The notes below the pieces were generated by a model. The model saw only the letters and a program-made list of their open reading frames with translations. It made no database searches and had not been told where the DNA came from. A DNA stretch of 64,000 nt, taken from Pseudomonadota bacterium (GTDB lineage Bacteria > Pseudomonadota > Gammaproteobacteria > Ga0077536). The number at the start of each line of letters is the position of its first letter. The stretch's first letter is position 1. The stretch spans positions 48,724 through 112,723 of the forward strand of contig JABISZ010000010.1 of assembly GCA_018668255.1 (NCBI GenBank). Reading direction: 5' to 3'. A program made the position numbers and the translations under genes. This document shows, in pieces, positions 1,297 through 37,420 of this stretch.

Positions 1297-2742
1297 CTAA
1301 AACCTTTCTATTTCGGGGTGCGGCAATTGTCCATTGTGGACATGCATGCCTCCAAGCTCGGCGCAGCGATGAAGAGAAGGTATGGCTTTGCCAGGATTTA
1401 GGAGATTTTCAGAGTCAAAAGCCTTTTTTATCGCCTGCATTTGACTAATCTCTTTCTCTGAAAATTGGATGCACATTGCATCAAGTTTTTCAACCCCAAC
1501 CCCGTGCTCGCCAGTAATAGTACCCCCAACTTCAACGCATAATGCTAAAATCTCGGTGCCCAATCTCTCCGCATGCTCTAGCTGAGAGTCGATATTTGCG
1601 TCATAGGCAATTAGTGGATGTAGATTACCGTCACCTGCATGAAAAACGTTGGCAACTCTTAATCCGTAAGTCAGTGATAATTCATGAATACGATTCAACA
1701 CAAACCCTAAAGACCGCCTCGGGATAGTGCCATCCATACAATAGTAGTCAGGTGCTATCCTCCCCAGAGCTGGGAACGCAGATTTTCTTCCTTTCCAGTA
1801 TAAAAGCCTTTCAGCCTCGGTTTCAGACACACGAAGCTGGGTAGCGCCGGCGCTGTTCATTAACCCACTTACTCGGGTAATTTCCGCAGTGACTTCGGCC
1901 TCAACGCCGTCTAGTTCACATAGTAAGATAGCCGCACACCCCAGCGGGTAGCCCGCTTTACAGTAGTCTTCCGCGACCTCTACCGACAGCTCATCCATCA
2001 TTTCCAACCCGGCGGGAACAACACCTGCGCTGATTATAGACTCCACAGCCGAGCTGGCATTATCCACACTGTCAAAAGAGGCCAAAATAACACGTGCCTG
2101 CTCAGGCTTCGGCAACAACTTAACCGTAACCTCTACCACAACCCCTAGTAACCCTTCAGAGCCATGCATCAAAGCTAACAAGTCTAAGCCAGAAGTATCC
2201 GGTGCACGCGACCCAATAGTTAATAGCTCTCCATCAATCGTCACTACCTTAATTTCCAGCACATTATGGACAGTCAAACCGTATTTAAGGCAATGCAATC
2301 CACCAGAATTCTCAGCAACATTTCCCCCAATACTGCATGCGATTTGAGATGAGGGGTCTGGAGCATAATAGAGACCATGCTCGCTAACTGCGTCACTGAT
2401 CGCCGCGTTGCGCACGCCCGGCTCCAAGGTTGCTGTCAAATTTTCAATATCAACGGAAAGAATCTTATTCATCTTAGCCAGGCTCATCAAACAACCGTTA
2501 GCTAATGGCAAAGCACCGCCGGAAAGACCGGTTCCAGAGCCGCGTGTAACAAGAGGCGTAGATTGTTCTGCACATATCTTTACTATCTTAACCACCTCAT
2601 CAACAGCAGCTGGAATAACAACTATCAAGGGAGTTTGTTGGTACGCAGATAAGCCGTCACATTCGTAAGGCCTCATCGCCTCATTAGACGACAAGCAGCG
2701 CTCAGGAGGCAGAAATTTTCGCAACTCAGATTCAATCGTCAT
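1297..2742 (-). CDS. FAD-linked oxidase (GlcD / D-2-hydroxyacid dehydrogenase family)
   Basis: 481 aa. The N-terminal part has a PCMH-type FAD-binding fold signature (RGSGTGLSGGALP) and the C-terminal part a FAD-oxidase domain. No glcE/glcF partners are adjacent. Confidence 0.75.
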   Translation of the reverse strand: MTIESELRKFLPPERCLSSNEAMRPYECDGLSAYQQTPLIVVIPAAVDEVVKIVKICAEQSTPLVTRGSGTGLSGGALPLANGCLMSLAKMNKILSVDIENLTATLEPGVRNAAISDAVSEHGLYYAPDPSSQIACSIGGNVAENSGGLHCLKYGLTVHNVLEIKVVTIDGELLTIGSRAPDTSGLDLLALMHGSEGLLGVVVEVTVKLLPKPEQARVILASFDSVDNASSAVESIISAGVVPAGLEMMDELSVEVAEDYCKAGYPLGCAAILLCELDGVEAEVTAEITRVSGLMNSAGATQLRVSETEAERLLYWKGRKSAFPALGRIAPDYYCMDGTIPRRSLGFVLNRIHELSLTYGLRVANVFHAGDGNLHPLIAYDANIDSQLEHAERLGTEILALCVEVGGTITGEHGVGVEKLDAMCIQFSEKEISQMQAIKKAFDSENLLNPGKAIPSLHRCAELGGMHVHNGQLPHPEIERF

Positions 2743-3010
2743 CTGAAACCTTTTCTCAAAATGCGTAGCTCACTTTTCGCTAAGTTATAATTACTTCTTA
2801 GTGCTCAATGATATTCTAATCTTTCAGCGAGCTCAAAGATCAAAAAGATCCATTTCTTCCGCTTTAAAATAGGTTTGTATTGGCGAGTACTGTTATCATT
2901 ATCATGACGTAATCTGAACGGTTACGTGGATAATGGATATTTTTTCCATCTCAAGCTGAGCGCTTGTTTTACGTAAATTAAGGCAGCTTCCTAGCGATGA
3001 TTAAAAACAT

Positions 3011-6000
3011 ATGTTCAAAATCATAGAAGCCATTGGGGCAAAGGTTCCTAAGGCGTTCGCATATTTCATAATAGCAGTTGGGTTTGCGGCTGTTATTACG
3101 CGCATTTTACTCCCCCTCAGCAAACTCGACACCGATTTCTTCTCAGACCATGTAACCGCTTTCTCTGGTAGACCCGCCTCAATCCAAAATGTCCGATTCA
3201 GTTGGACGGGATGGGCACCTACGTTAACAGCGCAAAAACTGGATATCTTGGATAAGCAGAACGGCACCACACTGATTCATTTTCCCCTAGTAAGAATCGA
3301 AGTATCGCCTATTCAGAGTTTAATTAACCGCGAGCTTACTGCTAAAAAAATAACCTTTGAAAAACTCAATATCAGTTTGGTTCGAGATGAAGTAGGTAAA
3401 ATATCAGTGAGGGGGATGCCTCCTCCTAAATTTCCAATTTTCAACTGGTTACTTTCGCAAAAAGTATTCAGCCTGATTGACGTGACTCTTCAATTTGAAG
3501 ATAAAACGACTCAACAAGATATCTTGCTTACAAATCTCACAGCAATAAGCACTCATAAGGAAGGCCATCAAATATTTGGCTCCGCCCAATTACCAAAAGA
3601 ATTAGGACAATATTTCGAATTCTCTATGGAATCTGACTCTACGATAGCGAATGGAGTAGAAAATCTAGAGGTGTTACTCAGAGCTGAAAATCTAAATTTA
3701 AGGAGCGTACTTAAGATATTAAATCAGCCCTTAGGTCTTGATGAAGTGCTGATAGCAGACTTCAGTGGGAAAGGTGTCTGGGAAGATTCAACTTTGAAAA
3801 TTTTTGACTTTTCTTTTCGGGAACCGTCTTCGGCCATCAGGTCAGAAAAGTCTATCGCTATTGAAGGCTCGGTTAGCTCCACAGAATCGACTTGGAAGCT
3901 CGATATAAGACACCTATCAGTGCCACATATCTCTTCGCTGAAAACACAAAACGCAATAAACTTAGTGTGGCAGCAAGATCCCCTAATCAATAAAGAAATC
4001 GAGTTCTCAGCTAAGCAGTTTGACATTGCGATAGCGATGTACTTGGCTCGACTGACAGCTGCCATGCCTCTTGAAGCCCAAAACCTACTGGAAACTGTCC
4101 ATCCGCGAGGTTCAATGGAAAATATCATAGGTCATTATTATCCTGATGATACGGACTCCGCTTTTGATATAGACCTCGGTGTAAAAAATTTATCCACTAG
4201 AGGAACTGATAAATATCCGGCTCTAAACGGTTTTTCAGGGGTTGCAAAAATAACCCGGATTGAGGGGAAACTAATGCTATTGAAGACGGATTTCACTCTC
4301 GATGAACATCATAATCTTGATAGCGCTTTAGAATTCAACAGTCTTGAAGGCTCGCTCGGCTGGGAGAAAAATGAAAAAGGTAAATGGAGTATTTCGGTAC
4401 CTGGTATTTCTGGAAAACTAAACAACTCGGCCTTTCATATCTCTGGTCGTTATAAGAACTTGCTCTCTAATGAGGCTTATCTCGAAGTTGGTGTCTCTTT
4501 CCCTAAGATTGACGCTCAGAGTCTTAGTAGCCTAGTGCCTGTCAACATAGTCTCCCGCAAAGGTGAAGCCTGGATGCGGAACTTGTTCCATAAGGGGCAG
4601 TTGACCGAAGGGATAATAGCTTTTCGGGGACCGACGAAAAATTTTCCATTTAGAAACTCTGAAGGTACGCTCGTCGCTGATTTCAAAGTCAGTAAATCGA
4701 CGTTGGAATATGCTGAATTCTGGCCTTTAGCACGTGACGTAAATGGACATATAGCTCTGCGGGAGGACAACCTTTATTTGCTCATTAATGAAGGAACTAT
4801 CAGTGAAGCCTCAATATCGAAGGCCAATATTAAGTGCGAGCAACTCTTTAATAAAGAAAAATTTGTAAGCATCACTGGTACAGCAACGGCTCCCGGCACC
4901 TTTCCCTCCGAGCTAGTCCTAGCAAGTCCATTAATAAACACCAAGGCGAAGCAAATTACGCAATTCATATTAGAGGACGATATTACGCTGTACCTAGATA
5001 TGACTGTTCCTCTTTTTAGTGGAGGGAAAAAGGATATTTCTGGTAGAGCTGCTCTTGATAAAAATACGTTAAGTTTAGCTCGTACGGATATTAAATTAAC
5101 GGAGGTTTCGGGAAACCTGTTCCTCAAAAATAACCAATGGTGGACGAATGAGCTAACCGCTATTTTAGATGGTACAGAAATACATCTTAATGCTAAAAGT
5201 GGAAGAAATACTGAGCTCTACGCTGCTGAAGCGCATATCCGAGGCAATTCGACAATCGAAAAACTGATGTTTAGGCTTGGGAAACACAGTCCAGTCTTCG
5301 CCAAATGGCTTACTGAAAAAAACTTTACCGCATACAATAAAGGAAATTTAGACTGGGATACGACTATAACGCTGCCTAAAAAAACCTATAAAGATAATAA
5401 GCAGAAGTTTAATGGTCAGTTTAAATTTAGCTCTAATTTAGTAGGTGTAAAATCAACATTGCCTCTGCCGATGAAAAAATTAGCACGAAATGAAAAACAA
5501 TTTTCAGTTGATCTTGAAATAGAAGACGGAAAATTAAAAGGTGGCTTCATCGACTTCTCTGAAAGCGGTGAGGTGCCGACCGTCGAAACTGGAGAACATA
5601 CTGCACCGCACAAGGGCATTCTCTTTCGTGGATCATTTGATCATTTAGAAATAGATTTATGGATGAATTTTTTCAAAGGAGATAGTCCCACCAATGAAGA
5701 TATGGCAAAAATCCCACTGCTTTTTGACTTACGAACTGGAGCTGCCACTCTTTTCGGCCACAAATTTAGTGATATGCGGATTAAAGGTCTCCAAATCGGA
5801 AAAGGCTGGAATATCGAGATAGAGGGAATAGACGCCTCTGGTAATATTATCACTCCTTCTCTCAGCAACTCCAACGTGCTTGACATTAAACTTCAACACC
5901 TGCGTCTAATAAAAAATAAATCGTCAATAGAAGCTGTTCCGCAAGAAAACTCCGATTTGAAACCTAATGAATTCCCTTCTCTTGTAATAGACATTAATGA

Positions 6001-22768: not shown

Positions 22769-23644
22769 TTGATTAATATGATCGGCTTAAAGAAAATAAA
22801 ACCTTTTATAGAACTTATACGGATAGACCGTCCAATCGGTATTTTACTACTTCTATGGCCTACTTTGTGGGGTCTTTGGATTGCTGGTCATGGGCAGCCT
22901 TCGTTAAAAATCGTCATCATTTTTATCTTTGGTACTTTTTTTATGAGATCTGCTGGATGTGTAGTAAACGATTTCGCGGACAAAAAGTACGATAAAGATG
23001 TAACACGAACTCAAAAAAGACCTTTAGCCAGCGGGATCCTTAAGTCACGCCACGCAATGTGGCTGTTTTTAACGCTTATCGGTTGCTCATTTTTATTAGT
23101 CTCTCAAACTAACAGGCTTACTCTGGAGCTTGCCGTCATTGGTGTCCTCTTGGCCAGCACATATCCATATGCGAAAAGATTTACCTACCTTCCGCAAATA
23201 CACCTCGGCATAGCATTTGGTTGGGCAATCCCTATGAGCTTTGCGGCGCAGATATCAGCCTTACCTCGTGAATGCTGGACTATATTCATAGTTACGATCA
23301 TTTGGGCTATCATATATGATACTGAGTATGCGATGGTTGACAGGGACGATGATCTAAAAATAGGCGTTAAATCAACAGCGATACTATTTGGTGAAGATGA
23401 TCGCTTTATAATTGGCTTACTCCAAATTTTGATGATTTTTGGGCTTTTCATGATTGGAAACGCAGCGGACCTCCATCAACAATTCTACTTATCGATTGCA
23501 ATAACTGCCTTAATCTTCTGTCATCAACAACTTAAACTAAAGGAAAGGACCCGAGATGCTTATTTCAAAGCATTCAAAAGTAACAACTACGTAGGGTTGG
23601 TTATTTTTATTGGGATAGGTACCAGCTATTATTTTCAACCATAG
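22769..23644 (+). CDS. ubiA: 4-hydroxybenzoate polyprenyltransferase UbiA
   Basis: 291 aa with the UbiA motif NDFADKKYD and multiple TM segments. Confidence 0.85.
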   Translation: MINMIGLKKIKPFIELIRIDRPIGILLLLWPTLWGLWIAGHGQPSLKIVIIFIFGTFFMRSAGCVVNDFADKKYDKDVTRTQKRPLASGILKSRHAMWLFLTLIGCSFLLVSQTNRLTLELAVIGVLLASTYPYAKRFTYLPQIHLGIAFGWAIPMSFAAQISALPRECWTIFIVTIIWAIIYDTEYAMVDRDDDLKIGVKSTAILFGEDDRFIIGLLQILMIFGLFMIGNAADLHQQFYLSIAITALIFCHQQLKLKERTRDAYFKAFKSNNYVGLVIFIGIGTSYYFQP

Positions 23645-26418: not shown

Positions 26419-27852
26419 ATGACTCATTCGCTTCTGCCAAAGCTAGCTGGAATTGTGATACTTCTGTTCGTGGCGGGAAGGTCGATAGCATCTGACAGCT
26501 TTCCCATCGAAATTGAACAAGCACTAATACACCACCAAATAGCTCAAAAAAACGTCAGCCTGGTTGTACAAGCGCTTGATGAAAGTGAAGCGCGATTGTC
26601 CCTCAACCCTGATACTTTGCGTAATCCGGCGTCTCTAGCGAAGCTAATCACTTCCTGGGTCGCGTTGAAACGTTTAGGCCCGTCATACAAATGGAAAACG
26701 GAATTCTATGCTGCAGGAGAAATTAAAGACGGTATTTTACATGGTGACTTAGTAGTAAAAGGATATGGAGATCCATATCTCACCAACCAAGACCTCTGGT
26801 CGATACTAGGGAAATTAAGTCGAAATGGGTTAAAACGGATAACGGGACGGCTGCTGTTAGACGACACATACTTCATCACTGATGAAATTGATCCTTATGC
26901 TTTTGATGGAGATGGCACGCATATATACAACAACCTACCAAACGCACTCACACTGAATTTTAACGCATTAGATCTGACATTCTCGGCAAAAAAAACCAAC
27001 ACGCAGATAACTGCTAATTTCTGGCCGCCTATCGAAAACATAAAATTAAACAACTCTGTTAAATTAATTAACGGTCCATGTACAAGAAAAATGCCAGATA
27101 TTAAAATAGATTCTATTACTATTGAAAACAAGACACATCTAAAAGCGCGCGGCGAAATGCCCCTATCATGCAAAGAATATAGCGTTTCTAGAAACCTGAT
27201 GTCTCGGGAACACTACTTTTTCAACAACTTTAAAATGATTTGGAACCAGTGGGGAGCACAAATTGATGGAGATGTCGGTAGAACTATTCTAGCTAAAGAG
27301 CACACCCTGCTCTATAGCCATGACTCTCAATCGCTAGCTGATATTATTACTGCTATGAATAAGTGGAGTAATAATCAAATGGCCAGATCACTAATTTATA
27401 CTTTGGGAGTGTCTCCCGACGGTGCACACGCTACTCGAGCAAGAGGTATCAAAGTTATTAATGAAGAGCTGGACAGCTACAATATTCCAAAAACAGCATT
27501 AACCATTATCAACGGTTCCGGGCTTTCTAGAAATGTCAGAGCATCGGGGAATTCAATTACCCAGGTCCTACGTGCCGCCTGGAATGATAAGAATTCCAGC
27601 GAATTTGTCTCTTCTTTATCTATTGTCGGATATGATGGCACTGCCGCAAAGCGTTCTTTATCTGCCACTTCAAAAACCACAATGAGAGTAAAAACAGGCA
27701 GCTTAGATGACGTCTCAGCCATAGCTGGCTACATCCATCAAGGAAATAAGGTTTTTACTGTCGTCTGCATTGTGAATTCACCTATCGTAAACGAAGGAAT
27801 AGGAAAGAAGTTTGAGAATGAGGTGCTAAATTGGGCTTCTAGACTGCGCTAG
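26419..27852 (+). CDS. dacB: D-alanyl-D-alanine carboxypeptidase/endopeptidase PBP4
   Basis: 477 aa with a signal peptide and the SxxK active-site motif (PASLAKL). Same length as E. coli DacB. Confidence 0.8.
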   Translation: MTHSLLPKLAGIVILLFVAGRSIASDSFPIEIEQALIHHQIAQKNVSLVVQALDESEARLSLNPDTLRNPASLAKLITSWVALKRLGPSYKWKTEFYAAGEIKDGILHGDLVVKGYGDPYLTNQDLWSILGKLSRNGLKRITGRLLLDDTYFITDEIDPYAFDGDGTHIYNNLPNALTLNFNALDLTFSAKKTNTQITANFWPPIENIKLNNSVKLINGPCTRKMPDIKIDSITIENKTHLKARGEMPLSCKEYSVSRNLMSREHYFFNNFKMIWNQWGAQIDGDVGRTILAKEHTLLYSHDSQSLADIITAMNKWSNNQMARSLIYTLGVSPDGAHATRARGIKVINEELDSYNIPKTALTIINGSGLSRNVRASGNSITQVLRAAWNDKNSSEFVSSLSIVGYDGTAAKRSLSATSKTTMRVKTGSLDDVSAIAGYIHQGNKVFTVVCIVNSPIVNEGIGKKFENEVLNWASRLR

Positions 27853-27860
27853 CCTTAAAA

Positions 27861-29039
27861 TTACGGATGCTCTCGACTAGAAACGATGACCTTATCTATC
27901 CTCTCAAGAATACTTACTAGAATGTCATGGCTCGTAGCAAAATTTAATCTCACATGCTGAACACCTTCGGCACCAAAGTCGACTCCGTTCCCTAGGGCAA
28001 CTCTGCCCTCCTCCAAAATATGCGTATAGGGATTTGAGCTCAACTTTAACGCGCGCATATCCAGCCAAGCCAAGTAAGTCGCCTCCGGCGGATAATAAAC
28101 AACCTCGGGCCATCTAGACGCCACAAATTGTGAAACTAGATCTCTGTTTTCTCGCAACATGCCCAAAGTATTCTCCAACCATTCCTCCCCCTGAGTCCAT
28201 GCAGCATGCACGGCGGCGATGCTAAGAGTATTTGTACCACCCCTAGTGTGTCTAGGAACCGAGTCAAACTGCTTGCGGAGGTTAGCCGAGCCAAAGTGGG
28301 CAAATGCCAAGCATAAACCCGCGATATTAAATGCTTTGCTGGCAGACATTAATGTCACTGTGCGTTCAGCGATGTCGCTGCCAAGACTGGCAATAGGTAT
28401 ATGATCGGTGTCGTTCAAAATCAGGTCAGCATGTATTTCATCAGATAATATAAGTAGATCGTTCCTACAACAGAAATCAGCTAATTCTTCCAATTCCCGT
28501 CGACTAAACGATCTCCCTGTAGGGTTATGCGGATTGCATAACATAAAAATTCGAGTACTTTTCGTTATGGAAGATTGTAGCCGGTCAAAATCTATCCCGT
28601 ATCCATTAGCCCTTAGAACAAGAGGTACTGAAACCAATCGACGATCAGTTTCTTGCACGGAGTGGAGGAAAGGTGGATATATGGGTGGTTGAACAACCAC
28701 TCCTTCCCCTTTTTTGGAGAAAGTCTGTAACCCTAAATACAGTCCTTGGACAACGTCGTTGATTAGCAAGACACTATCACTCTTAACGTCCCAATCGAAC
28801 TTTTTCTTTACCCGCTCACAGAACAACTCAGGTAAACTAGTCTGTTGCTGCCCTACTGGATAACCGTAATCTGAAGTCTCAACTCTATTAGCTAGAGCCG
28901 CCTTTATTGGTTGGGCGACTTCGAAATCCATATCTGCCACCCACGCGGGCAAAACGTCGGTTTGATAATGGCTCCATTTAACACCCGTCTTTAAACGTAA
29001 AGTGTGTTCGTTTACATTGTAAATACCCATAGAATACAA
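27861..29039 (-). CDS. PLP-dependent aminotransferase class I/II, MalY/PatB-type C-S lyase
   Basis: 392 aa with the PLP-lysine motif SASKAFNIAGL. Confidence 0.75.
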   Translation of the reverse strand: MYSMGIYNVNEHTLRLKTGVKWSHYQTDVLPAWVADMDFEVAQPIKAALANRVETSDYGYPVGQQQTSLPELFCERVKKKFDWDVKSDSVLLINDVVQGLYLGLQTFSKKGEGVVVQPPIYPPFLHSVQETDRRLVSVPLVLRANGYGIDFDRLQSSITKSTRIFMLCNPHNPTGRSFSRRELEELADFCCRNDLLILSDEIHADLILNDTDHIPIASLGSDIAERTVTLMSASKAFNIAGLCLAFAHFGSANLRKQFDSVPRHTRGGTNTLSIAAVHAAWTQGEEWLENTLGMLRENRDLVSQFVASRWPEVVYYPPEATYLAWLDMRALKLSSNPYTHILEEGRVALGNGVDFGAEGVQHVRLNFATSHDILVSILERIDKVIVSSREHP

Positions 29040-29081: not shown

Positions 29082-29789
29082 ATGAGTGTTTTAATCACCG
29101 GTCACTCCAGTGGGCTCGGACGAGCCCTTGCAGAAAATTATCTAAAAAAAGGGAAGCTAGTATGGGGTATATCCAGAAGAACTCTGGACAGGAGTGATCT
29201 TGACTTAGTTCAAATTGAAGCTGACTTGTCCGACATGGCTGCTCTAAAATCAACCCTAAATAACGCTCAAGACATTCTCTCAGGGAGACCTCAGATCGTT
29301 TTTCTCAACGCAGCGACATTAGGCCCAATAGGACCGATGAGTAAAGTCACACAACAGGATATTCAAACGGTTATGAATACTAATGTTTGGGGAAATAAAG
29401 TTATTCTAGATTGGCTTATAGAAAAAAAAATAGCCCCAAAACAAATTATTTTAATTTCTTCAGGTGCAGCACTATCTGCAAATTATGGCTGGGGGCCATA
29501 TGCTCTTTCCAAATCCTCATTAAACATGCTGGGGAAACTTTACTCTCAGGAAATGGTGAACACACATATTATATCATTGGCGCCAGGTTACGTGGATACG
29601 GCAATGCAGGAGAAATTGAGAGCAGTGGACGCTAATTCATTCCCTTCAATGAAGCCATTACATGAAGCTCAGGGTACTACTTTAATGCCAAGCGCGGAGG
29701 ACGCCGCAAGAGAGATTATTAGTCATGTAGATGGCCTGAGAAAATATCCCACGGGGACATTTGTTGACCTTCGGCATGTCACCGAATGA
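29082..29789 (+). CDS. SDR-family oxidoreductase
   Basis: 235 aa with the N-terminal Rossmann motif TGHSSGLGRALA and a YxxxK active site. Confidence 0.7.
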   Translation: MSVLITGHSSGLGRALAENYLKKGKLVWGISRRTLDRSDLDLVQIEADLSDMAALKSTLNNAQDILSGRPQIVFLNAATLGPIGPMSKVTQQDIQTVMNTNVWGNKVILDWLIEKKIAPKQIILISSGAALSANYGWGPYALSKSSLNMLGKLYSQEMVNTHIISLAPGYVDTAMQEKLRAVDANSFPSMKPLHEAQGTTLMPSAEDAAREIISHVDGLRKYPTGTFVDLRHVTE

Positions 29790-29793
29790 AAAG

Positions 29794-30603
29794 TCAAACC
29801 CGGCGTTCATAAACTTGAACAGGAGCTCCTTGCTGCATACTAAGAAGCTGGGAAGCATTTTGCTCAGCACATGCTACTTCTACAACATTAGACGAATTAA
29901 ATAATGCTAAGAAGGTCCCTGGTTTCACGTTACTGTAAGTTCTTTGGAAATTTATTTCATGGCCACCGATGCTTACTACGGGGTCGGAAAACTTTTGAAT
30001 CTCACTCTTTTCAATATTTGTGATTAGGTTCCCGAAATGATCGGTAGTCACAACAACTCCAGACAAAACACCTCCTCTGATTTCAGGATATTCAAGAAGA
30101 GACGGTACGATATTATCTATCAGTAGTCCACAATTTACCTCGGTAAGAACCCTTGATGCTAAAGCTGCAGCAACAGGTGCAAAAACATCTCGACCATGAA
30201 ACGTGTCACTCACAGTAGATAATTGATATTTTTTGAGCAAATCTTCGGTCATTAAGTAGACATTAGCTCCGGTTTTTTCTACAACCTCAGCCAGCAAACC
30301 GTTATCAGGGCCGAGAAAGACATGTCCGTCTCCAAAAGCAACAATTAAACTGCGGTCTGAGCCAACACCCGGATCGACAACGCCCAGATGAACAGTCCCC
30401 GAAGGAAAATAATGATAACAGCGAGCAATCCAAAACCCAGCCTCTGCAGGCCAATGAACGTGTGCTTCATTAGTAAGATCAACGATACGCGCATCTAAAA
30501 ATCTACTATGAATGACTCCTTTCATAGTCCCAACAAAAGGACCTCGGTGACCGAAGTCTGTAGTTAGAGTAATAATCCCATTCGCTTGGAAATCGCTCCG
30601 CAT
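29794..30603 (-). CDS. SAM hydroxide adenosyltransferase / SAM-dependent halogenase superfamily protein (DUF62)
   Basis: 269 aa with DUF62 blocks ITLTTDFG, MKGVI, VDPGVGS, GPDNGLL and TFHGRDVFAP. Confidence 0.75.
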   Translation of the reverse strand: MRSDFQANGIITLTTDFGHRGPFVGTMKGVIHSRFLDARIVDLTNEAHVHWPAEAGFWIARCYHYFPSGTVHLGVVDPGVGSDRSLIVAFGDGHVFLGPDNGLLAEVVEKTGANVYLMTEDLLKKYQLSTVSDTFHGRDVFAPVAAALASRVLTEVNCGLLIDNIVPSLLEYPEIRGGVLSGVVVTTDHFGNLITNIEKSEIQKFSDPVVSIGGHEINFQRTYSNVKPGTFLALFNSSNVVEVACAEQNASQLLSMQQGAPVQVYERRV

Positions 30604-30706
30604 ACTCTCTCCCTTAAGGATGGCGACACAGAAAGATAAAAGCTATGCATGCCTGATTATTTGTAAACTTGAGATAATTTAAAGTAACAGTTATACAATA
30701 ATCACC

Positions 30707-31456
30707 GTGGATAATCCAAAAATAGAAAAAAAGCTTGAAAAAATTTCGTGCCCGATCTGCGCAGGGAACAGTTTCAAACATTTATTTGAGAAAGCCGGTG
30801 AACCCTTTGTTCAGTGCCATAATTGCGAGCTTACACTAATAAATCCTCGGCCTTCTCTAAGCGATATCACAGCAGGCTATGATGCTAGCTATAGTGCGGG
30901 CTATACAAAAAAAGCTACTAAAAAGAAACGCCGGGCATCTCACCGTGTGAAGCGCCTTAAAAAAGAGTACAAGATTTCTGGACGATGGTTAGACGTAGGA
31001 TGTTCTGCTGGATTTGTTGTCGAAGCGGCTGTATGTAATGGATTTCAAGCCTTTGGTGTAGATATTGAAAAAGCGGGAATAGAATACGGCCAAAAAACAT
31101 TGCACCTGGAAAATCTCGCAGAAGGAACGCTTAGTGAGCAGGACTATCCTAGCGCACACTTTCATGCTATTTCTGCCTATGATGTTCTAGAACATGTCCC
31201 TGACTTAAATAACTTTCTAAAAGAACTGAAAAGGATCTTGCATCCTAAGGGAGTTCTAGATCTTGGTACTCCAGACATAGGGCACTGGAGAGTACCTAAA
31301 ATCCTTTCACATTGGAATGAGCTCAAACCCTCAGAACATTTATACTATTTCAATAAAGGAACCTTAAACCAACTGCTAGACAAAAATGAACTACGTATAG
31401 ATAAAGTCAGATGGTCGATAAAGCCAAGTCTTAAGGTGACAATTACTCATCAATAG
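30707..31456 (+). CDS. Class I SAM-dependent methyltransferase with N-terminal zinc ribbon
   Basis: 249 aa. N-terminal CPICAGNSF...CHNCEL zinc-ribbon, MTase motif I LDVGCSAGF. GTG start. Confidence 0.7.
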   Translation: MDNPKIEKKLEKISCPICAGNSFKHLFEKAGEPFVQCHNCELTLINPRPSLSDITAGYDASYSAGYTKKATKKKRRASHRVKRLKKEYKISGRWLDVGCSAGFVVEAAVCNGFQAFGVDIEKAGIEYGQKTLHLENLAEGTLSEQDYPSAHFHAISAYDVLEHVPDLNNFLKELKRILHPKGVLDLGTPDIGHWRVPKILSHWNELKPSEHLYYFNKGTLNQLLDKNELRIDKVRWSIKPSLKVTITHQ

Positions 31457-31468
31457 CCAACTACTTTT

Positions 31469-32269
31469 CTAATCATTTCTCCAAGAAGGTAACTCTTTAA
31501 GTAAAAAGCTATTAATCCCCTCTAAAGCTTCTCTGCTAAGACGTTTCTCTGAATGTCCTGCAATCAGTTTATCCAGTAATTTTCTATTCGTATTTTTGTC
31601 GGACAGTGCCAAAAACCCGTCCTTGCTGACAGCGCTTGTTTTCGGGCCCGTGGATAAAATTTTACAGATGATTTTATCCGCATGCTGGTCTAAATTTCCA
31701 GGCTCGACCAGCTCACTAACTAAACCAATTTCTGAGGCAACTTCTCCCGAAAAATCCTCTCCAGTAAGCGCATAACGTTTAGCGTGACGTATTCCAATAG
31801 CATCGATTAATTGCGGGAAAATAATATTTGCTACCATACCAAAACGCGCCTCACTAATAGCAAAAACTGATGTTGTCTCTGCTAGTACAATATCGCAAGA
31901 TGCCACAATACCGCAGCCGCCTCCCATACATGCTCCCTGCACCAAAGCAATAGTGACTGTCTTCAAATTACGCAGCTGCCAAAAAGTCTCAGCTGTCTTT
32001 TTTGAGACTCTCTGATTTTCAGCAGCACTACAGAGGCTTACCTTCTTCAGCCATTGAATGTCTGCTCCGGCCTGAAAATGACGACCGGCTCCTCTAATCA
32101 AAATTATCCTCACATGACTATCAAGATCTAATTTTTTTATACAATCACTAAACTGATCAAGAAAATCTTCGTTATACGCGTTATTAGAACTGGAACGATT
32201 GAACATTATCGTTGCTACTCCAGATACTGTGATATCAGTTATCGAAACCAAATTACCCATAACGTGCAA
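31469..32269 (-). CDS. Enoyl-CoA hydratase/isomerase (crotonase) family
   Basis: 266 aa with crotonase fold motifs (oxyanion-hole Gly regions). Confidence 0.75.
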   Translation of the reverse strand: MHVMGNLVSITDITVSGVATIMFNRSSSNNAYNEDFLDQFSDCIKKLDLDSHVRIILIRGAGRHFQAGADIQWLKKVSLCSAAENQRVSKKTAETFWQLRNLKTVTIALVQGACMGGGCGIVASCDIVLAETTSVFAISEARFGMVANIIFPQLIDAIGIRHAKRYALTGEDFSGEVASEIGLVSELVEPGNLDQHADKIICKILSTGPKTSAVSKDGFLALSDKNTNRKLLDKLIAGHSEKRLSREALEGINSFLLKELPSWRND

Positions 32270-32277
32270 CTCACTCC

Positions 32278-32916
32278 TTAAGTAGAACCTTTACATAAAC
32301 GGGAAAACCCAGCCGATAAAAATGGAACCATGCGTAAATGTATCTCAGATAAATCGGAGCCACGGCAGGTGTCTCCAGAGAGTAAATCTATGCGACCAGT
32401 CTGTGCAAATGTCATAGTCATAGCACCAAGAAGAAAATGAAAACTCCAATAGACATCCTCCGTCTTAGCAACAGGGAACCTCACTCGTACGCGACGGATA
32501 AACTCAATCGCTACCGGATCGAACTCCGCTGACATGATCTCGCTCGTCCATCGGGGTGAGTTTGCAATCTGAGCGACTACACGAGCATAGTCTCTCCAGC
32601 CCTCACCTCCAAATAAACTTCGCCGAAGAAACGGACCAATGAAAGCCTCTATCAAATCTTCGCTTTCTGCTCTATCAGAAAGCGCGTTCAAAGCTTCCAT
32701 CCTCTCGTTGTTGAGGATTACAGAGCGTCGCTGAATAACAGCGCGAAAAAGTCCTAACTTAGAACCAAAATGATAATTTGGCAGAGCCAATTCTACTCCA
32801 GCAAGCTTAGTAATCATCCTCAAAGACACTCCGTCATAACCGCTTTCGGCAAATAGGGCCTCAGCTGAGTCTAAGATGCGCTGAGGCGTTGAAGTTTTGT
32901 CAGTTTTTTTATTCAC
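32278..32916 (-). CDS. TetR/AcrR family transcriptional regulator
   Basis: 212 aa with an N-terminal HTH typical of TetR. It is divergent from hyuA and has a palindromic operator in the intergenic region. Confidence 0.8.
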   Translation of the reverse strand: MNKKTDKTSTPQRILDSAEALFAESGYDGVSLRMITKLAGVELALPNYHFGSKLGLFRAVIQRRSVILNNERMEALNALSDRAESEDLIEAFIGPFLRRSLFGGEGWRDYARVVAQIANSPRWTSEIMSAEFDPVAIEFIRRVRVRFPVAKTEDVYWSFHFLLGAMTMTFAQTGRIDLLSGDTCRGSDLSEIHLRMVPFLSAGFSRLCKGST

Positions 32917-33023: not shown

Positions 33024-35129
33024 TTGAGCTCTTATATTTGCGGTCTAGATATAGGCGGAACTTTTACAGATTGCGTGCTCATAGACGAACATGGCGATCT
33101 TACAATCGCAAAATCACCTTCCACACCATCCGATTTTGCAGTTGGTGTGTTGAATGCTATAGAAAGAGCTGCCGTAAAAATTGGCCTCTCAACCCCGGAT
33201 CTTCTTGACTCAATTAACGTGTTAGCTCACGGAACTACAGTAGGAACTAACACTATAATTCAAAGACGGGGAGCTAAAGTTGGGCTCATTACGACAAAAG
33301 GCCATAACGATGTTATTCATATTATGCGAGGCTCTCGAGGGCTTGCAGGCCAAGATATCAAGTTAATTGTCCACATCCCTGAAAGCAGTAAGCCTAAACC
33401 TCTGATTCCTAAAAGATTGATTCGCGGAGTGTCTGAACGAGTCGACTGCTTTGGAAAAATTGTCGTTGAGTTAAATGAACTAGAAGTAGAAACCGCAATC
33501 AGAGAACTTCAAGATGCGGGATGCGACGCATTAGCCGTCTGCTGTCTCTGGTCTTTTCTCGAACCGAAACATGAGCAAAGGATCAAGGCCATCGCTCATA
33601 AAATAGCTCCAGAAATGTACGTTACGTGCTCTACCGATTTAGCTCCGAAATGGGGTGAGTATGAACGCACTACCGCTGTCGCTCTTAATGCATACATTGG
33701 ACCTATTACTGTCGGGTACATTACTCGCTTAGATAAACAGCTAAAAGAAATGGGTTATAAACCTCCACTGCAGATAACGCATTGTGCTGGAGGGACAATT
33801 ACTGTGCCAAAAGCACAGGAGGCTCCTTTACTAACCCTCGATTCAGGACCTGTATCAGGTGTCACAGGCTCTGTTTTCCTAGGTGGCTTGATGGGCTATC
33901 CCAACGTAATTACCACTGATCTCGGCGGCACCTCCTTTGATGTCGGTGTGATACACAATGGCAGTCCTGTAGTCTCTTATAAAAGCACAGTTAATCAGTA
34001 TGAATATTTTCTACCCAAAGTTGATGTCCAAACATTAGGTACTGGAGGTGGCAGTAAAGTTTGGATAGATCAGACAACAAATTCTCTTCGGGTAGGTCCC
34101 AATAGTGCTGGAGCGGATCCAGGACCGGTATGCTATGGGAAAGGAGGAACTACTCCGACAACGACTGACGCTGATCTTGTTCTAGGCTATCTCGACCCCA
34201 ATAACTTTGCAGCAGGAACGATTAAACTGGACCATAAAGCGGCAACTGAGGCTCTACAAAAGATAGCAGATGAACTCGAAATGACACTTTTTGAGCTTGC
34301 CAGCGGCGTTGCTACTATCGCTGAATTCCAGATGGCAGATCTAATTCGTAAAGTGACCGTACAAAAAGGCCTAGACCCACGAGAATTTGTCGTGTTCGCT
34401 TTTGGTGGCGCAGGTCCTGTACATATGGGCGTCGCTGCACGGGAGCTAGGAGTTGACAAGGTCATAGTCCCACAAGGCGATACTGCGGCGGTCTGGTGCG
34501 CATTTGGAGCAGCCTCCGCAGATATTCTCCATGTTGGAGAACAAGCGAAAATTATTTCATCTCCATTCAACTTAACCGAAATCAATAAGATTCTGAACGG
34601 GTTGTCTTTGAAAGGAAGCCAACAGTTGCAGAGCGATGGTATAGAACAGGCGAAGCATCAGTTTCAATATTCATTGGACATGAGACATCGTGGCCAAATT
34701 AATGAAGTCGAAGTGTTTATAGATAGTGGAATACTCGATGAGAAAGCACTTGAGGCGTTAAGAGAGAAGTTCGTAGCTCGGTACGAGCAACTATACGGCC
34801 GTGGCTCTGCAATGCATGATGCTCGACTAGAAATCGTAACGGCGAGGTGCCGCTCATCTGCTCTATCATTAAAACCTAAACTTAAAGAGTTTTCTTTAAC
34901 ATTAGAGCCTCTCCCCGCGGACGCCAAAACTGGGACCAGGGATATCTATTGGGCTGAAAAACAATCTGTCGAAACAACTCCTATATTTAATGGCTATCTT
35001 TTTAAACCTGGAAACAGCGCTGAAGGGCCTTGCGTTGTCGAAACAGAAACCACGTCGATCGTTGTGCACCCTAAACAGGAAATCAGCATGGACACTTTTA
35101 GAAACTTTGTGATCAACCCCAATACCTGA
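33024..35129 (+). CDS. Hydantoinase/oxoprolinase A-type subunit (HyuA; acetone-carboxylase beta-like)
   Basis: 701 aa, TTG start, N-terminal GLDIGGTFTD ATPase (ASKHA) motif. Confidence 0.85.
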   Translation: MSSYICGLDIGGTFTDCVLIDEHGDLTIAKSPSTPSDFAVGVLNAIERAAVKIGLSTPDLLDSINVLAHGTTVGTNTIIQRRGAKVGLITTKGHNDVIHIMRGSRGLAGQDIKLIVHIPESSKPKPLIPKRLIRGVSERVDCFGKIVVELNELEVETAIRELQDAGCDALAVCCLWSFLEPKHEQRIKAIAHKIAPEMYVTCSTDLAPKWGEYERTTAVALNAYIGPITVGYITRLDKQLKEMGYKPPLQITHCAGGTITVPKAQEAPLLTLDSGPVSGVTGSVFLGGLMGYPNVITTDLGGTSFDVGVIHNGSPVVSYKSTVNQYEYFLPKVDVQTLGTGGGSKVWIDQTTNSLRVGPNSAGADPGPVCYGKGGTTPTTTDADLVLGYLDPNNFAAGTIKLDHKAATEALQKIADELEMTLFELASGVATIAEFQMADLIRKVTVQKGLDPREFVVFAFGGAGPVHMGVAARELGVDKVIVPQGDTAAVWCAFGAASADILHVGEQAKIISSPFNLTEINKILNGLSLKGSQQLQSDGIEQAKHQFQYSLDMRHRGQINEVEVFIDSGILDEKALEALREKFVARYEQLYGRGSAMHDARLEIVTARCRSSALSLKPKLKEFSLTLEPLPADAKTGTRDIYWAEKQSVETTPIFNGYLFKPGNSAEGPCVVETETTSIVVHPKQEISMDTFRNFVINPNT

Positions 35130-35140
35130 GGTTATTTCAG

Positions 35141-37420
35141 ATGCCACGAATAAGCGAAATGACTGACGTAGACTTCAATGGAATTGAAAATCCCTACGTG
35201 CCACCGAAAATCCTGAAAATAGCCTCAAAACTAAGGCTTCATCAAACCTGGGACAAAGAAGTCGACCCGGTAACTTATGAAGTTATCCGTCATAACCTTT
35301 GGCAAATTAATGAAGAGCATGGGGCAACGATACAGCGCCTGTCGGGGTCTCCTGTCGCAATGTACGCTCTCGACTTAAACCCATCCATCCTGACTGAAGA
35401 TGCAGAGTTCGTATACTTTGGCCCTTATATGCAATACATGTCTGGTGTGACAGACACCCAAGTAAAATGGACTCTGGAATACCGAAGTGAGAATCCTGGG
35501 ATAAATGAGGGGGACATGTTTATAGCCAATGATCCGTGGGTAGGGGCGGCTCATCAACAAGATGTGATGCTACTTTGTCCAGTTTTTTGGGAAGGAGAGC
35601 TTTTCTGTTGGATAACAAACTGTCTTCACCAATATGACATCGGAGGGATAACTCCCGGCAGCTTCTGTCCATCTGCGGAATCAGTTTACGAAGAAGGACT
35701 AATGCTTCCACCTCTCAAGATAATTGAAAACTATGAAGTCAGAAAAGATATTGAAGCCGTATATCTAAGGTCGTCCAGAAAGCCTGATTTAGTAGCGTTA
35801 GACTTCCGAGCCCAAATTGCAGGTAACACAACTGCGCGTGATCGAATTTTAGAGCTCATCAAGCGCTATGGAGCAGCCACACTGAAAGGTGTAATGAAAA
35901 GGATTATAGACAACTCGGAAAAATCCTACTTAGATAAAATGTCACGCTTACCTGACGGAGAATGGTCTGATCGAACGTATATAGAGGCTTGCCGCCCGGG
36001 TGACAGACGAACTCATCGGGTCATGTTAGGTCTTCGTAAAGAAGGCAATAAACTTATCTTTAACAATGACGGTTCTGCACCCCAGGAAGGAGCTATGAAT
36101 GCAACTTACTCGGGTTGGCGTGGTTCCGTAATGGTTGCTGTGAATGAATTACTTTGCTGGGATCAGTATTTTGCATGTGGCGGTGCTTTACGGCACATTG
36201 AGTTTGACCCTACGCCGGGAACGCTCAATTGTGCAGACTTCCCATCGTCCGTCTCGACTGCTCCGATACAAGCTATGGAAATTTCACTATATCCCGCCTA
36301 TAACGTCATATCCAAAATGATTTACCCCGATCCGATCATGCGAAAAGACATCATGTGTATCGGCGGCACCAGCCAATGGCCTGCTACTTTATTCAGAGGG
36401 ATCGATCAGTGGGGTGAAAAGTATGGCTATCTACTCATTGATCCTATTGGCGGCGCCATAGGCGCATTTACTATGGCAGATGGTATAAACACTGGTGGAC
36501 AAGCAAGAACGCCTATCTGTCAATTGCCTAATGTGGAACATACGGAACAAAATTTTCCTATCTTGTTCCTTTACCGCAAAGAGCTCAGTGACTCGGGTGG
36601 AGCAGGGAAATACAGAGGCGGACTTTCTGCTGAAAGCTGCTTCATCCCTCATAATACTGAATTCGTTACGCAGGACACTCTTTCTTCTGGCAATGCAATA
36701 CCTACTTCACCTGGCCTGATGGGAGGATACCCATCAACTACTAATGCCTATACATTCGTCAAAGACAGCAATATTTTTGACTGTATGGCGTCGTCACAGA
36801 TGCCAAAGGATACAGACGAATTATTAGGGAATTCCGTAACGTTGCAGCTTCGGGAACAAAACTTCACCCAAGATCCTAAAGATGTATACGCCGTCAGATG
36901 GAGTGGTGGTGGTGGATTCGGTGACCCTTTTGATAGAGCACCAGAGGATATAGAGGATGACTTGGAGTCGCTTGCTATAACCGAAAATTCTGCGGAAACA
37001 CTTTATGGTGCAATCTTAGGCAAAGATGGCCATGTTGATGTTGAAAGGACACGCGAACATAGAGCCAAAATAAGGAAATCTAGAGTTACTGAAATTAAGA
37101 AATCAAATAGGAAGGGTCAGTTGTTATCTGAAAATTCGCACTCAATCAACATTATGCGAGATGACGCCGGCACCTACTGGGCTTGCGCAAAATGTGACTT
37201 CGAATTGGGTGATATCTCAGAGAACTATAAAGAACATTGCGTGACCGAGAATCAAAGCATCGCAGTCTCCAATCCTTTGATTGGCGACGAAGCTAGATTC
37301 ATCGATAACGCGGTTGAATTTAGGCAATTCTATTGCTGCCAGTGCGGCTGCCTTCTAGACAACGAAATCGCAATCGCTGAAGATCCTTTGCTCCACGATT
37401 CAAGGCATCAGCTCAGTTAA
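35141..37420 (+). CDS. Hydantoinase B/oxoprolinase-type subunit (HyuB) fused to a C-terminal Cys4 zinc-ribbon extension
   Basis: 759 aa. The HyuB core ends near GGGGFGDP. The ~110-aa C-terminal tail carries CAKC (residue 682) and CCQCGC (residue 732). Confidence 0.8.
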   Translation: MPRISEMTDVDFNGIENPYVPPKILKIASKLRLHQTWDKEVDPVTYEVIRHNLWQINEEHGATIQRLSGSPVAMYALDLNPSILTEDAEFVYFGPYMQYMSGVTDTQVKWTLEYRSENPGINEGDMFIANDPWVGAAHQQDVMLLCPVFWEGELFCWITNCLHQYDIGGITPGSFCPSAESVYEEGLMLPPLKIIENYEVRKDIEAVYLRSSRKPDLVALDFRAQIAGNTTARDRILELIKRYGAATLKGVMKRIIDNSEKSYLDKMSRLPDGEWSDRTYIEACRPGDRRTHRVMLGLRKEGNKLIFNNDGSAPQEGAMNATYSGWRGSVMVAVNELLCWDQYFACGGALRHIEFDPTPGTLNCADFPSSVSTAPIQAMEISLYPAYNVISKMIYPDPIMRKDIMCIGGTSQWPATLFRGIDQWGEKYGYLLIDPIGGAIGAFTMADGINTGGQARTPICQLPNVEHTEQNFPILFLYRKELSDSGGAGKYRGGLSAESCFIPHNTEFVTQDTLSSGNAIPTSPGLMGGYPSTTNAYTFVKDSNIFDCMASSQMPKDTDELLGNSVTLQLREQNFTQDPKDVYAVRWSGGGGFGDPFDRAPEDIEDDLESLAITENSAETLYGAILGKDGHVDVERTREHRAKIRKSRVTEIKKSNRKGQLLSENSHSINIMRDDAGTYWACAKCDFELGDISENYKEHCVTENQSIAVSNPLIGDEARFIDNAVEFRQFYCCQCGCLLDNEIAIAEDPLLHDSRHQLS

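Follow-up and report, generated by a model that had tools for sequence, protein, structure and literature searches.

The divergent gene pair considered here most likely combines a conventional SAM hydrolase of the DUF62 family with an independent methyltransferase of an LPS-core-associated family, the two being vertically inherited neighbors without functional coupling; we put the probability of this interpretation at about 80%. It is based on the family membership of the two proteins, the catalytic triad and fold of the DUF62 protein, the distribution of the adjacency among genomes, and the genomic contexts of the methyltransferase homologues. The two unrelated genes were probably brought together by one ancient rearrangement. 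The window, that is, the entire stretch of DNA that was analyzed, comprises 64,000 nt from a Pseudomonadota bacterium (Gammaproteobacteria; Ga0077536; assembly GCA_018668255.1, contig JABISZ010000010.1, positions 48,724-112,723, forward). The divergent arrangement across 103 bp, as given in the original prediction, is exact (Table 1).

Table 1. Features of the DUF62-methyltransferase locus, in window positions.
Feature	Position	Strand	Basis or remark
DUF62 protein, 269 aa (predicted SAM hydroxide adenosyltransferase / SAM hydrolase, adenosine-forming)	29794..30603	-	Pfam PF01887 + PF20257
Class I SAM-dependent methyltransferase, 249 aa, GTG start	30707..31456	+	Pfam Methyltransf_23
Divergent intergenic spacer, AT-rich, 103 bp	30604..30706	.	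coordinates
Asp77 codon (triad Asp)	30373..30375	-	MAFFT alignment; codon checked
Arg84 codon (triad Arg)	30352..30354	-	MAFFT alignment; codon checked
His136 codon (triad His)	30196..30198	-	MAFFT alignment; codon checked
SDR oxidoreductase, convergent with DUF62 (4 bp between stop codons)	29082..29789	+	
PatB-family C-S lyase (conserved backbone gene)	27861..29039	-	NCBIfam TIGR04350
Enoyl-CoA hydratase (ECH), backbone gene	31469-32269	-	
TetR/PsrA-like regulator, backbone gene	32278-32916	-	
UbiA prenyltransferase	22769-23644		~7 kb from methyltransferase

The assignment of the minus-strand protein to DUF62, initially made from four motifs, holds in full. The protein contains each of them, namely, TLTTDFG (residue 12), VDPGVGS (76), GPDNGLL (98) and TFHGRD (134), and it has the two-domain architecture, with both domains above the Pfam gathering scores: SAM_HAT_N (PF01887) matches with E=1.2e-45 (155.3 bits, cut-off 26.3) and SAM_HAT_C (PF20257) with E=7.6e-21 (74.7 bits, cut-off 25.5). 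A good Shine-Dalgarno sequence, AAGGGAGAGAG, lies close 5' of the ATG. In a sequence search of the PDB, the hydrolases match with E-values from 6e-38 to 1e-26, the top matches (E about 1e-37) being the structures 2wr8 and 1wu8 of PH0463, whereas the halogenases reach only 4e-14 to 7e-10. The same ranking is seen with the AF2 model (pLDDT 88), for which the top Foldseek matches are 2zbu, 1wu8 and 2wr8 (TM 0.83-0.87), as compared to 0.77-0.82 for halogenases of the FlA/SalL type; the identity by fold match is 31-35% to the hydrolases and 23-26% to the halogenases. PH0463 (PhDUF62), the SAM hydroxide adenosyltransferase of Pyrococcus horikoshii, shares with the window protein the two-domain fold, the triad, the Asp of TDFG and the FHGRD motif, and the other solved hydrolase relatives are alike in this respect, namely, TM DUF62 (2zbu), MJ1651 (2f4n/22uy) and TTHA0338 (2cw5). 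These proteins come from thermophiles, whereas the window protein is bacterial, from an uncultured gammaproteobacterium with a GC content of about 43%.

Whether this DUF62 copy is a hydrolase or a halogenase was to be settled, according to the original prediction, by alignment with FlA, SalL and PH0463. FlA (1rqp) and SalL (2q6i) belong to the same superfamily, have the same fold and perform the same type of SN2 displacement at C5' of SAM. The rival reading is a halogenase that, in this marine organism, would serve the synthesis of a halogenated natural product. In the MAFFT alignment, where the FlA sequence is an exact match to 1rqp_A and the SalL sequence to 2q6i_A, residues D77, R84 and H136 align without gaps with D68, R75 and H127 of PH0463, whereas the equivalent positions are Y77, T84 and Y157 in FlA and Y72, T79 and Y130 in SalL. 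The Asp-Arg-His triad is invariant across 27 sequences, i.e. the DUF62 protein and 26 orthologues. This triad is strictly conserved in the DUF62 hydrolases, where it has a water-activating role, and is missing in both halogenases (PMC10491745); since its positions are taken by Tyr, Thr and Tyr in the latter, water would be excluded beside the sulfonium. Also invariant in the DUF62 alignment is D16 of the TLTTDFG motif (D16 in FlA, D7 in PH0463), the Asp of the (T/S)D(F/L)G element that, according to the structural work on FlA, binds the ribose hydroxyls.

The halide-pocket residues lead to the same result. The mutated pocket residues, as can be judged from PDB entry titles, are Y70T (2q6o), Y70T/G131S (2q6l) and S158G/A (2v7t and 2v7x). 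The position of Tyr70 of SalL is occupied in the DUF62 protein by Val75, that of Thr80 of FlA by Val80, and that of Ser158 of FlA by Gly137, the residue next to His136; thus, no halogenase-type residues are found beside the canonical triad. It is true that Gly137 is equivalent to Gly131 of SalL, but this match is non-discriminating because the same Gly is found in PH0463, TTHA0338, MJ1651 and all 26 orthologues. The inserted loop specific to FlA (residues about 94-115) is absent from the DUF62 protein in the alignment, and the fluorinase model TIGR04507 yields 44.2 bits against a cut-off of 400. The full triad, the lack of the FlA/SalL pocket residues and the hydrolase identity of the closest structures, taken together, argue that the protein, as judged from its sequence, is a SAM hydroxide adenosyltransferase, a standard member of DUF62, and not a fluorinase or chlorinase. 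The label "SAM-dependent chlorinase/fluorinase" on some database records of homologues, including the DUF62 records of the clade described below, is a generic family name, and the DUF62 proteins tested in published assays showed no halogenating activity (PMC4227530). Hence, since the active-site residues (triad and pocket), the absent loop, the model score and the context in the surveyed ORFs all point the other way, we consider the halogenase ruled out, the chance of its being correct being next to nil.

The genomic context speaks against natural-product potential, the aspect that had been singled out for a marine organism. The Pfam scan of the window covered 28 of the 49 larger ORFs, at positions 22-40262, and the matches in these ORFs are all to housekeeping or catabolic genes; no halometabolite pathway gene (phosphorylase, isomerase, aldolase or others), no nucleoside phosphorylase and no biosynthetic cluster was found among them. 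Since the surveyed parts of the window are housekeeping chromosome, the natural-product angle is unsupported. Thus, with an ordinary hydrolase and a methyltransferase of the LPS-core type, the pair appears ordinary and devoid of natural-product significance, and a possible false lead, that of a marine halogenase and, among the surveyed ORFs, a natural-product cluster, can be removed.

In the proposed mechanism, the DUF62 enzyme would bind SAM, the Asp77-Arg84-His136 triad would activate water, and the activated water would attack C5' of SAM, yielding adenosine and L-methionine. The preferred substrate would most likely be the inactive SAM epimer with (R) configuration at the sulfonium, which arises spontaneously, by homology to the characterized members from Salinispora tropica, S. 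acidocaldarius and H. volcanii; with such a preference, the DUF62 protein, probably an (R)-SAM hydrolase by analogy, would be a metabolite-repair enzyme. We know of no sequence determinant of (R)-SAM selectivity. This selectivity has been reported for StDUF62, SaciSAMH and HvSAMH (bioRxiv 10.1101/2025.08.29.672840; PMC12120602), which belong to the same Pfam family as the window protein and presumably catalyze the same reaction, whereas FlA prefers (S,S)-SAM (PMC12120602). The window protein scores below the cut-offs of the two (R)-SAM hydrolase equivalogs, NF058624 and NF053629 (154.5 versus 350 bits and 150 versus 470 bits), these models representing narrow Thermus-type and Pyrococcus-type subfamilies; it therefore falls outside these subfamilies, and its stereoselectivity is an extrapolation. 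Differences from the studied members are also apparent: StDUF62 is lysine-free (PMC12120602), whereas the window protein contains 7 Lys, and the S. acidocaldarius gene shares its operon with those for a triphosphate tunnel metalloenzyme and NMN adenylyltransferase rather than lying beside a methyltransferase (bioRxiv 10.1101/2025.08.29.672840). The role of DUF62 in non-thermophiles is debated and, specifically, hydrolysis of (R,S)-SAM as a physiological role in a marine mesophile has been questioned (PMC12120602); the locus described here is no better a test of this role than any other DUF62 gene.

The second gene was correctly recognized as encoding a class I methyltransferase with an N-terminal CxxC...CxxC element. 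The Methyltransf_23 match is well above the cut-off (E=4.3e-20; 72.5 bits versus 27), and C15, C18, C37 and C40, which make up a predicted zinc ribbon, are invariant in 18 of 18 family members from both genomic contexts, i.e. next to DUF62 and in LPS-core loci. The same invariance is shown by the motifs TPDxGHWR (TPDIGHWR in the window protein), KPSEHLYYF and CPxC...CxxC, and the family alignment also shows D96, G98, S100 and G102 of Rossmann motif I (LDVGCSAG) to be invariant. The homologues at 52-56% identity are found, in 7 cases out of 7, in LPS-core clusters of the type Aminotran_4 (ilvE)-ELM1-MTase-GT4-GT9, the gene order being Aminotran_4 - (zf-CHCC) - ELM1-like - MTase - GT4 - GT2/GT9, and none of the seven has DUF62 nearby. 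This layout matches that of the LPS/LOS core locus of A. baumannii, which starts with an ELM1-like gene (A1S_2903) downstream of ilvE (PMC10936431); the word methyltransferase does not occur in the text of that paper. The LPS-core location is a feature of context and no strict criterion of the family. Unlike these homologues, the window methyltransferase is detached from glycosyltransferase genes, as no LPS/LOS core glycosyltransferase cluster was found in the surveyed window parts or in the loci of its clade. Since the family usually resides in an LPS/LOS core locus, the contexts of the homologues suggest that the methyltransferase most likely acts on an envelope glycan or its precursor.

A different identity, that of a quinone methyltransferase of the UbiG/UbiE type linked to the UbiA gene located some 7 kb away, might be read from the top NCBIfam match, which is UbiG, and from the JGI annotation of several homologues as benzoquinol methylase. 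The score against TIGR01983 is, however, 43.5 bits as compared to a cut-off of 102.95, and the match covers only the generic Rossmann core (residues 85-188), whereas the zinc ribbon, TPDIGHWR and KPSEHLYYF define a separate family whose other members sit among glycosyltransferases. With the score below the cut-off and the homologues in LPS-core contexts, the UbiG identity can be ruled out as highly improbable. For annotators, it may be of use that this family of ~250-aa zinc-ribbon methyltransferases, labelled quinol methylase by JGI, is really associated with LPS-core loci of the ilvE-ELM1 type, and that one clade of uncultured Gammaproteobacteria has such a methyltransferase head-to-head with a SAM hydrolase.

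The linkage of the two genes, whose conservation in other genomes was a further point raised in the original prediction, stands within this clade and not beyond it. In a survey of 80 species-level genomes (81 loci in the neighbor counts), the methyltransferase is adjacent and divergent to DUF62 in 23 of the 80, and these 23 genomes form one clade; the pair is absent from the sister lineages. The 23 positive loci correspond to exactly one bipartition of the unrooted DUF62 tree, with 59% bootstrap. An NJ tree with PH0463 as the root placed these loci in two groups, but this split is likely to be a rooting or long-branch artefact, given the single exact bipartition in the unrooted tree. Within the clade, DUF62 identity outside near-identical genomes is 57-64% and GC content ranges from 43 to 71%; the two genes are separated by 71-182 bp in every member, and their adjacency is the most stable junction, the outer neighbors on both sides being variable. 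The SDR oxidoreductase co-occurs with the methyltransferase in this clade; at two of the loci (L007 and L012) the methyltransferase heads an MTase-HAD-kinase unit pointing away from DUF62.

The backbone HydA-TetR-ECH-DUF62-PatB-S13 peptidase is also seen in the sister lineages, where the methyltransferase is missing from it. In the two sister lineages that were examined (L024 and L050), the genes TetR-ECH-DUF62-ZIP-PatB are co-directional, with ECH and TetR directly upstream of DUF62. The scenario that we favor for the origin of the pair is that, in the ancestor of the clade, the methyltransferase most likely landed in a housekeeping array of mixed content, of the type TetR-ECH-DUF62-X-PatB, where it was flanked by ECH and DUF62 but encoded on the other strand, and would have been inherited there since. 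The tree, being unrooted and supporting this split with a bootstrap of just 59%, does not decide between gain in the clade and loss in the sisters. The PatB-family C-S lyase (379.6 bits against TIGR04350, cut-off 340) is present in 34 of the 81 loci, and a sulfur-metabolism operon of DUF62 and PatB was considered and rejected: the gene between the two differs by clade, being the opposite-strand SDR or, in a sister clade, a ZIP zinc transporter, and ECH and TetR flank the other side, so that the array is functionally mixed.

The stability of the methyltransferase-DUF62 junction, against the background of changing outer genes, could reflect selection for co-regulation. The hydrolase and the methyltransferase could, accordingly, be envisaged as a functional module co-regulated from the spacer, with DUF62, for example, adjusting the supply of SAM to this particular methyltransferase or ridding it of inhibitory (R,S)-SAM, and the short divergent spacer in every clade member is what might be expected of such a module. 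However, the distribution fits a single event followed by vertical descent, and the PatB-S13 peptidase and HydA-TetR junctions, which join unrelated genes, are conserved as widely or more widely. Furthermore, the sister lineages carry DUF62 without the methyltransferase, the distant homologues of the latter reside in LPS-core clusters that lack DUF62, and the DUF62 family is very widespread, with 7,999 matches versus 359 for the methyltransferase. On balance, a module seems unlikely. Slightly less probable still is the more specific possibility that selection in the clade keeps an envelope-glycan methyltransferase together with an (R)-SAM hydrolase as a bidirectionally transcribed pair of "cofactor hygiene plus consumer"; if true, this would be a natural case of a SAM repair enzyme that serves, or is regulated together with, a single methyltransferase, and a possible handle on the disputed role of DUF62 in mesophiles.

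The spacer itself argues against co-regulation, as no element in it is conserved across the clade: the sequence is nearly identical among relatives at 94-96%, but the spacers of low-GC and high-GC members share nothing alignable. A scan for the sigma-70 consensus gave 5 sites in 2 kb versus 4.1 +/- 2.0 expected from shuffles, i.e. the chance level. With these two results, a conserved operator or promoter was rejected, and the "shared promoter region" of the original prediction comes down to presumed promoters within the 103 bp. A SAM riboswitch or another structured RNA in the spacer was likewise rejected, as no Rfam family reaches the gathering score anywhere in the 64-kb window. In the high-GC subgroup, CTTGCGC and GATCATCG recur in the spacers and resemble ordinary -35 and -10 elements.

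In the original prediction, the choice between a hydroxide transferase and a halogenase was left to a few active-site residues of the DUF62 protein. An alignment of the window protein with the fluorinase FlA and the chlorinase SalL (both exact full-length matches to the PDB chains 1rqp_A and 2q6i_A), the P. horikoshii hydrolase PH0463, TTHA0338, MJ1651 and 26 orthologues gives the canonical Asp-Arg-His triad, gap-free against that of PH0463 and invariant in all 27 sequences of the window protein and its orthologues, whereas both halogenases have Tyr, Thr and Tyr there. The halide-pocket positions hold V75 and V80, the inserted loop specific to FlA is absent from the window protein in the same alignment, and Gly137 is non-discriminating, since every hydrolase in the alignment has Gly at this position. 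According to a 2023 review, DUF62 proteins strictly conserve the His-Arg-Asp triad, with which they activate the water for hydrolysis, and neither halogenase has it (PMC10491745); assayed DUF62 proteins lacked halogenating activity (PMC4227530).

Active-site residues at aligned positions
Position	Window	PH0463	FlA	SalL
Triad Asp	D77	D68	Y77	Y72
Triad Arg	R84	R75	T84	T79
Triad His	H136	H127	Y157	Y130
SalL Tyr70	V75	V66	T75	Y70
FlA Thr80	V80	V71	T80	T75
FlA Ser158 / SalL Gly131	G137	G128	S158	G131

Similarly, the solved structures nearest by sequence are hydrolases, with PH0463 (2wr8/1wu8) at E ~1e-37 and MJ1651, TTHA0338 and the TM DUF62 protein at 1e-26 to 3e-28; fluorinases and chlorinases reach only 4e-14 to 7e-10, and the NCBIfam fluorinase model gives the window protein 44 bits where 400 are required. 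The AlphaFold2 model built from the 27-sequence alignment (pLDDT 88, pTM 0.85) is nearest to the hydrolases 2zbu, 1wu8 and 2wr8 (TM 0.83-0.87, 31-35% identity); the halogenases share the fold, at 23-26% identity. We put the probability that the protein is a hydrolase and not a halogenase at about 0.95 and, since triad and pocket are ordinary in the very comparison proposed originally, it is a predicted SAM hydroxide adenosyltransferase. Recent work shows DUF62-type enzymes to be selective for the inactive (R)-sulfonium epimer of SAM, which they hydrolyse (bioRxiv 10.1101/2025.08.29.672840; PMC12120602), and by extrapolation the window protein probably shares this selectivity; it scores under the cut-offs of two narrow NCBIfam "(R)-SAM hydrolase" equivalogs (154 vs 350 and 150 vs 470 bits), and (R)-SAM hydrolysis as a physiological role in a marine mesophile has been questioned (PMC12120602). 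As a member of a known enzyme family, the gene is unremarkable: among 7,999 homologues scored, the best identities are 96% and 87%, these sequences are already public, the 87% one is named a SAM hydrolase, and JGI calls several homologues S-adenosylmethionine hydrolase.

Both ORFs lie exactly where they had been predicted, diverging across an AT-rich spacer of 103 bp. All four expected DUF62 motifs are present (TLTTDFG at residue 12, VDPGVGS at 76, GPDNGLL at 98, TFHGRD at 134), along with both Pfam domains (SAM_HAT_N, 1.2e-45; SAM_HAT_C, 7.6e-21). The plus-strand METHYLTRANSFERASE matches Methyltransf_23 (4.3e-20) and carries the anticipated zinc-ribbon cysteines, C15-x2-C18 ... C37-x2-C40. 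Since a sigma-70 consensus scan for promoters around the spacer stayed at chance level, the proposed shared promoter is still something that we infer. No Rfam family reached its gathering score in the window, and there is no terminator-like hairpin between the convergent stop codons of the SDR and DUF62 genes.

Features in the window and in homologous loci (L handles)
Feature	Sequence	Positions	Strand	Remarks
S13 DD-carboxypeptidase	window	26419-27852
PatB-family C-S lyase	window	27861-29039		above NCBIfam cut-off
Convergence of SDR and DUF62	window	29789-29794		stop codons only 4 bp apart
DUF62 ORF	window	29794-30603	minus	269 aa, ATG start
Methyltransferase ORF	window	30707-31456	plus	249 aa, GTG start
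Hydantoinase/oxoprolinase A, then B	window	33024-37420		B fused to acetone-carboxylase gamma-like C-terminus (one 759-aa ORF)
TetR, ECH, DUF62, ZIP zinc transporter, PatB	L024	4357-8834		co-directional, tightly spaced
TetR, ECH, DUF62, ZIP zinc transporter, PatB	L050	4431-8861		co-directional, tightly spaced
Zinc-ribbon methyltransferase, TylF/Methyltransf_24 methyltransferase, DUF62	L056	4438-9946		cytochrome P450 and luciferase-like monooxygenase after DUF62
Methyltransferase, HAD-family hydrolase, APH-type phosphotransferase	L007	3054-5965		overlapping stop/start codons
Methyltransferase, HAD-family hydrolase	L012	~1938-3734		overlapping stop/start codons
LPS/LOS-core cluster	L082	4075-6873		ilvE, zf-CHCC, ELM1-like, methyltransferase, GT4, GT9

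How far is the linkage of DUF62 to the methyltransferase kept? Scanning a single genome for each species yielded 80 loci (DUF62 identity 51-94%); all of them come from MAGs, most of these gammaproteobacterial, and they were searched by tblastn with eight local window proteins. The methyltransferase adjoins DUF62 in 23 of the 80, as well as in the ENA contig L001, on the opposite strand and immediately upstream, with a spacer estimated at 71-182 bp; the sole exception is L056, where a TylF-type methyltransferase intervenes. Sister lineages retain the backbone HydA-TetR-(ECH)-DUF62-...-PatB-S13 peptidase without the methyltransferase and the SDR, and the most distant loci (51-54% identity) have no neighbours in common with the window. 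The linkage is conserved within one clade and absent from its sisters. Between DUF62 and PatB, the methyltransferase-negative sister loci L024 and L050 have the ZIP transporter, and the window clade has an SDR on the opposite strand.

In an unrooted NJ tree of DUF62, the methyltransferase-adjacent loci form exactly one bipartition (Jaccard 1.0; exact in 59 of 100 bootstraps), so that a single gain or loss, passed on vertically thereafter, accounts for the distribution. This is an old clade, with GC contents of 43 to 71%. The pair is its most stable junction, with varying outer neighbours: ECH, TetR, HydA or a HAD-hydrolase and APH-kinase unit upstream of the methyltransferase; the SDR directly, an inserted TPP enzyme or a P450 downstream of DUF62. 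This stability is the only argument for a functional coupling of the two enzymes, which we consider improbable. Other backbone genes with no relation to each other have junctions that are kept equally widely. The PatB/S13 junction, for instance, is kept in ~30 of 81 loci despite unrelated functions; hence, gene-order turnover of the region is generally slow. That the two genes lie head to head is specific to this clade, within which the arrangement has been inherited vertically, and the small residual novelty lies in its clade-wide persistence and in the uncharacterised methyltransferase family. In spacers of high-GC members (L004-L036), CTTGCGC is followed ~17-20 nt on by GATCATCG or, in another subgroup, by GACAATG; these strings are probably the DUF62 promoter, and the low-GC window clade lacks them.

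The methyltransferase family is small (359 hits), with the zinc-ribbon cysteines, LDVGCSAG, TPDxGHWR and KPSEHLYYF invariant. Seven homologues on long contigs (52-56% identity) all belong to one kind of cluster, in the order Aminotran_4 (IlvE-type), small zf-CHCC, ELM1-like, methyltransferase, GT4, GT2 or GT9 (heptosyltransferase family), the ELM1 stop and the methyltransferase start overlapping by 4 bp in most loci; a sulfotransferase or TylF-type methyltransferase is sometimes included, as is a Wzy_C ligase in P0227 loci, and no DUF62 gene occurs within 5 kb of the seven. The layout is that of the Acinetobacter baumannii core-oligosaccharide locus, whose first gene, the ELM1-like 2903, lies downstream of ilvE and is needed to assemble the inner core (PMC10936431). 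The roughly 250-aa zinc-ribbon class I enzymes of such clusters (L082-L092), labelled benzoquinol methylase by JGI, are probably uncharacterised core-oligosaccharide methyltransferases. A TylF-type gene adjoins the methyltransferase in the LPS clusters of L089 and L090 (compare L056).

In one subclade (L007 and L012), the methyltransferase is first in a same-strand unit directed away from DUF62, and the make-up of this unit is a hint of a pathway that modifies phospho-sugars. JGI's UbiG label is unsupported (43.5 bits where 102.95 are required, covering the Rossmann core only). Given the LPS-core contexts, these separate units and the unsupported UbiG label, the window enzyme most likely methylates an envelope glycan (LPS/LOS core), its gene having been relocated in one clade; it is an independent enzyme with a family context in LPS-core biosynthesis.

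Over the ORFs scanned, the window is core chromosome. The pair is flanked by S13 D-Ala-D-Ala carboxypeptidase, PatB-family C-S lyase, SDR oxidoreductase, enoyl-CoA hydratase (ECH), a TetR/PsrA-like regulator and hydantoinase/oxoprolinase A and B; farther out lie PmbA, YhdP, MnmA, aconitase, NhaB, nitroreductase, a radical-SAM protein, RdgB, RNase PH, YicC, Gmk, SpoT, RecG, UbiA, CoA-transferase and amidase. Among the 28 of 49 larger ORFs scanned with Pfam (positions 22-40262), there was no biosynthetic cluster or gene for processing 5'-halo-deoxyadenosine. The counterpart of the 759-aa B fusion is called as two genes (222 and 508 aa) in L001, a 96%-identical relative. HydA identity is 69-83% in most loci that have this gene, far above the conservation of its neighbours.
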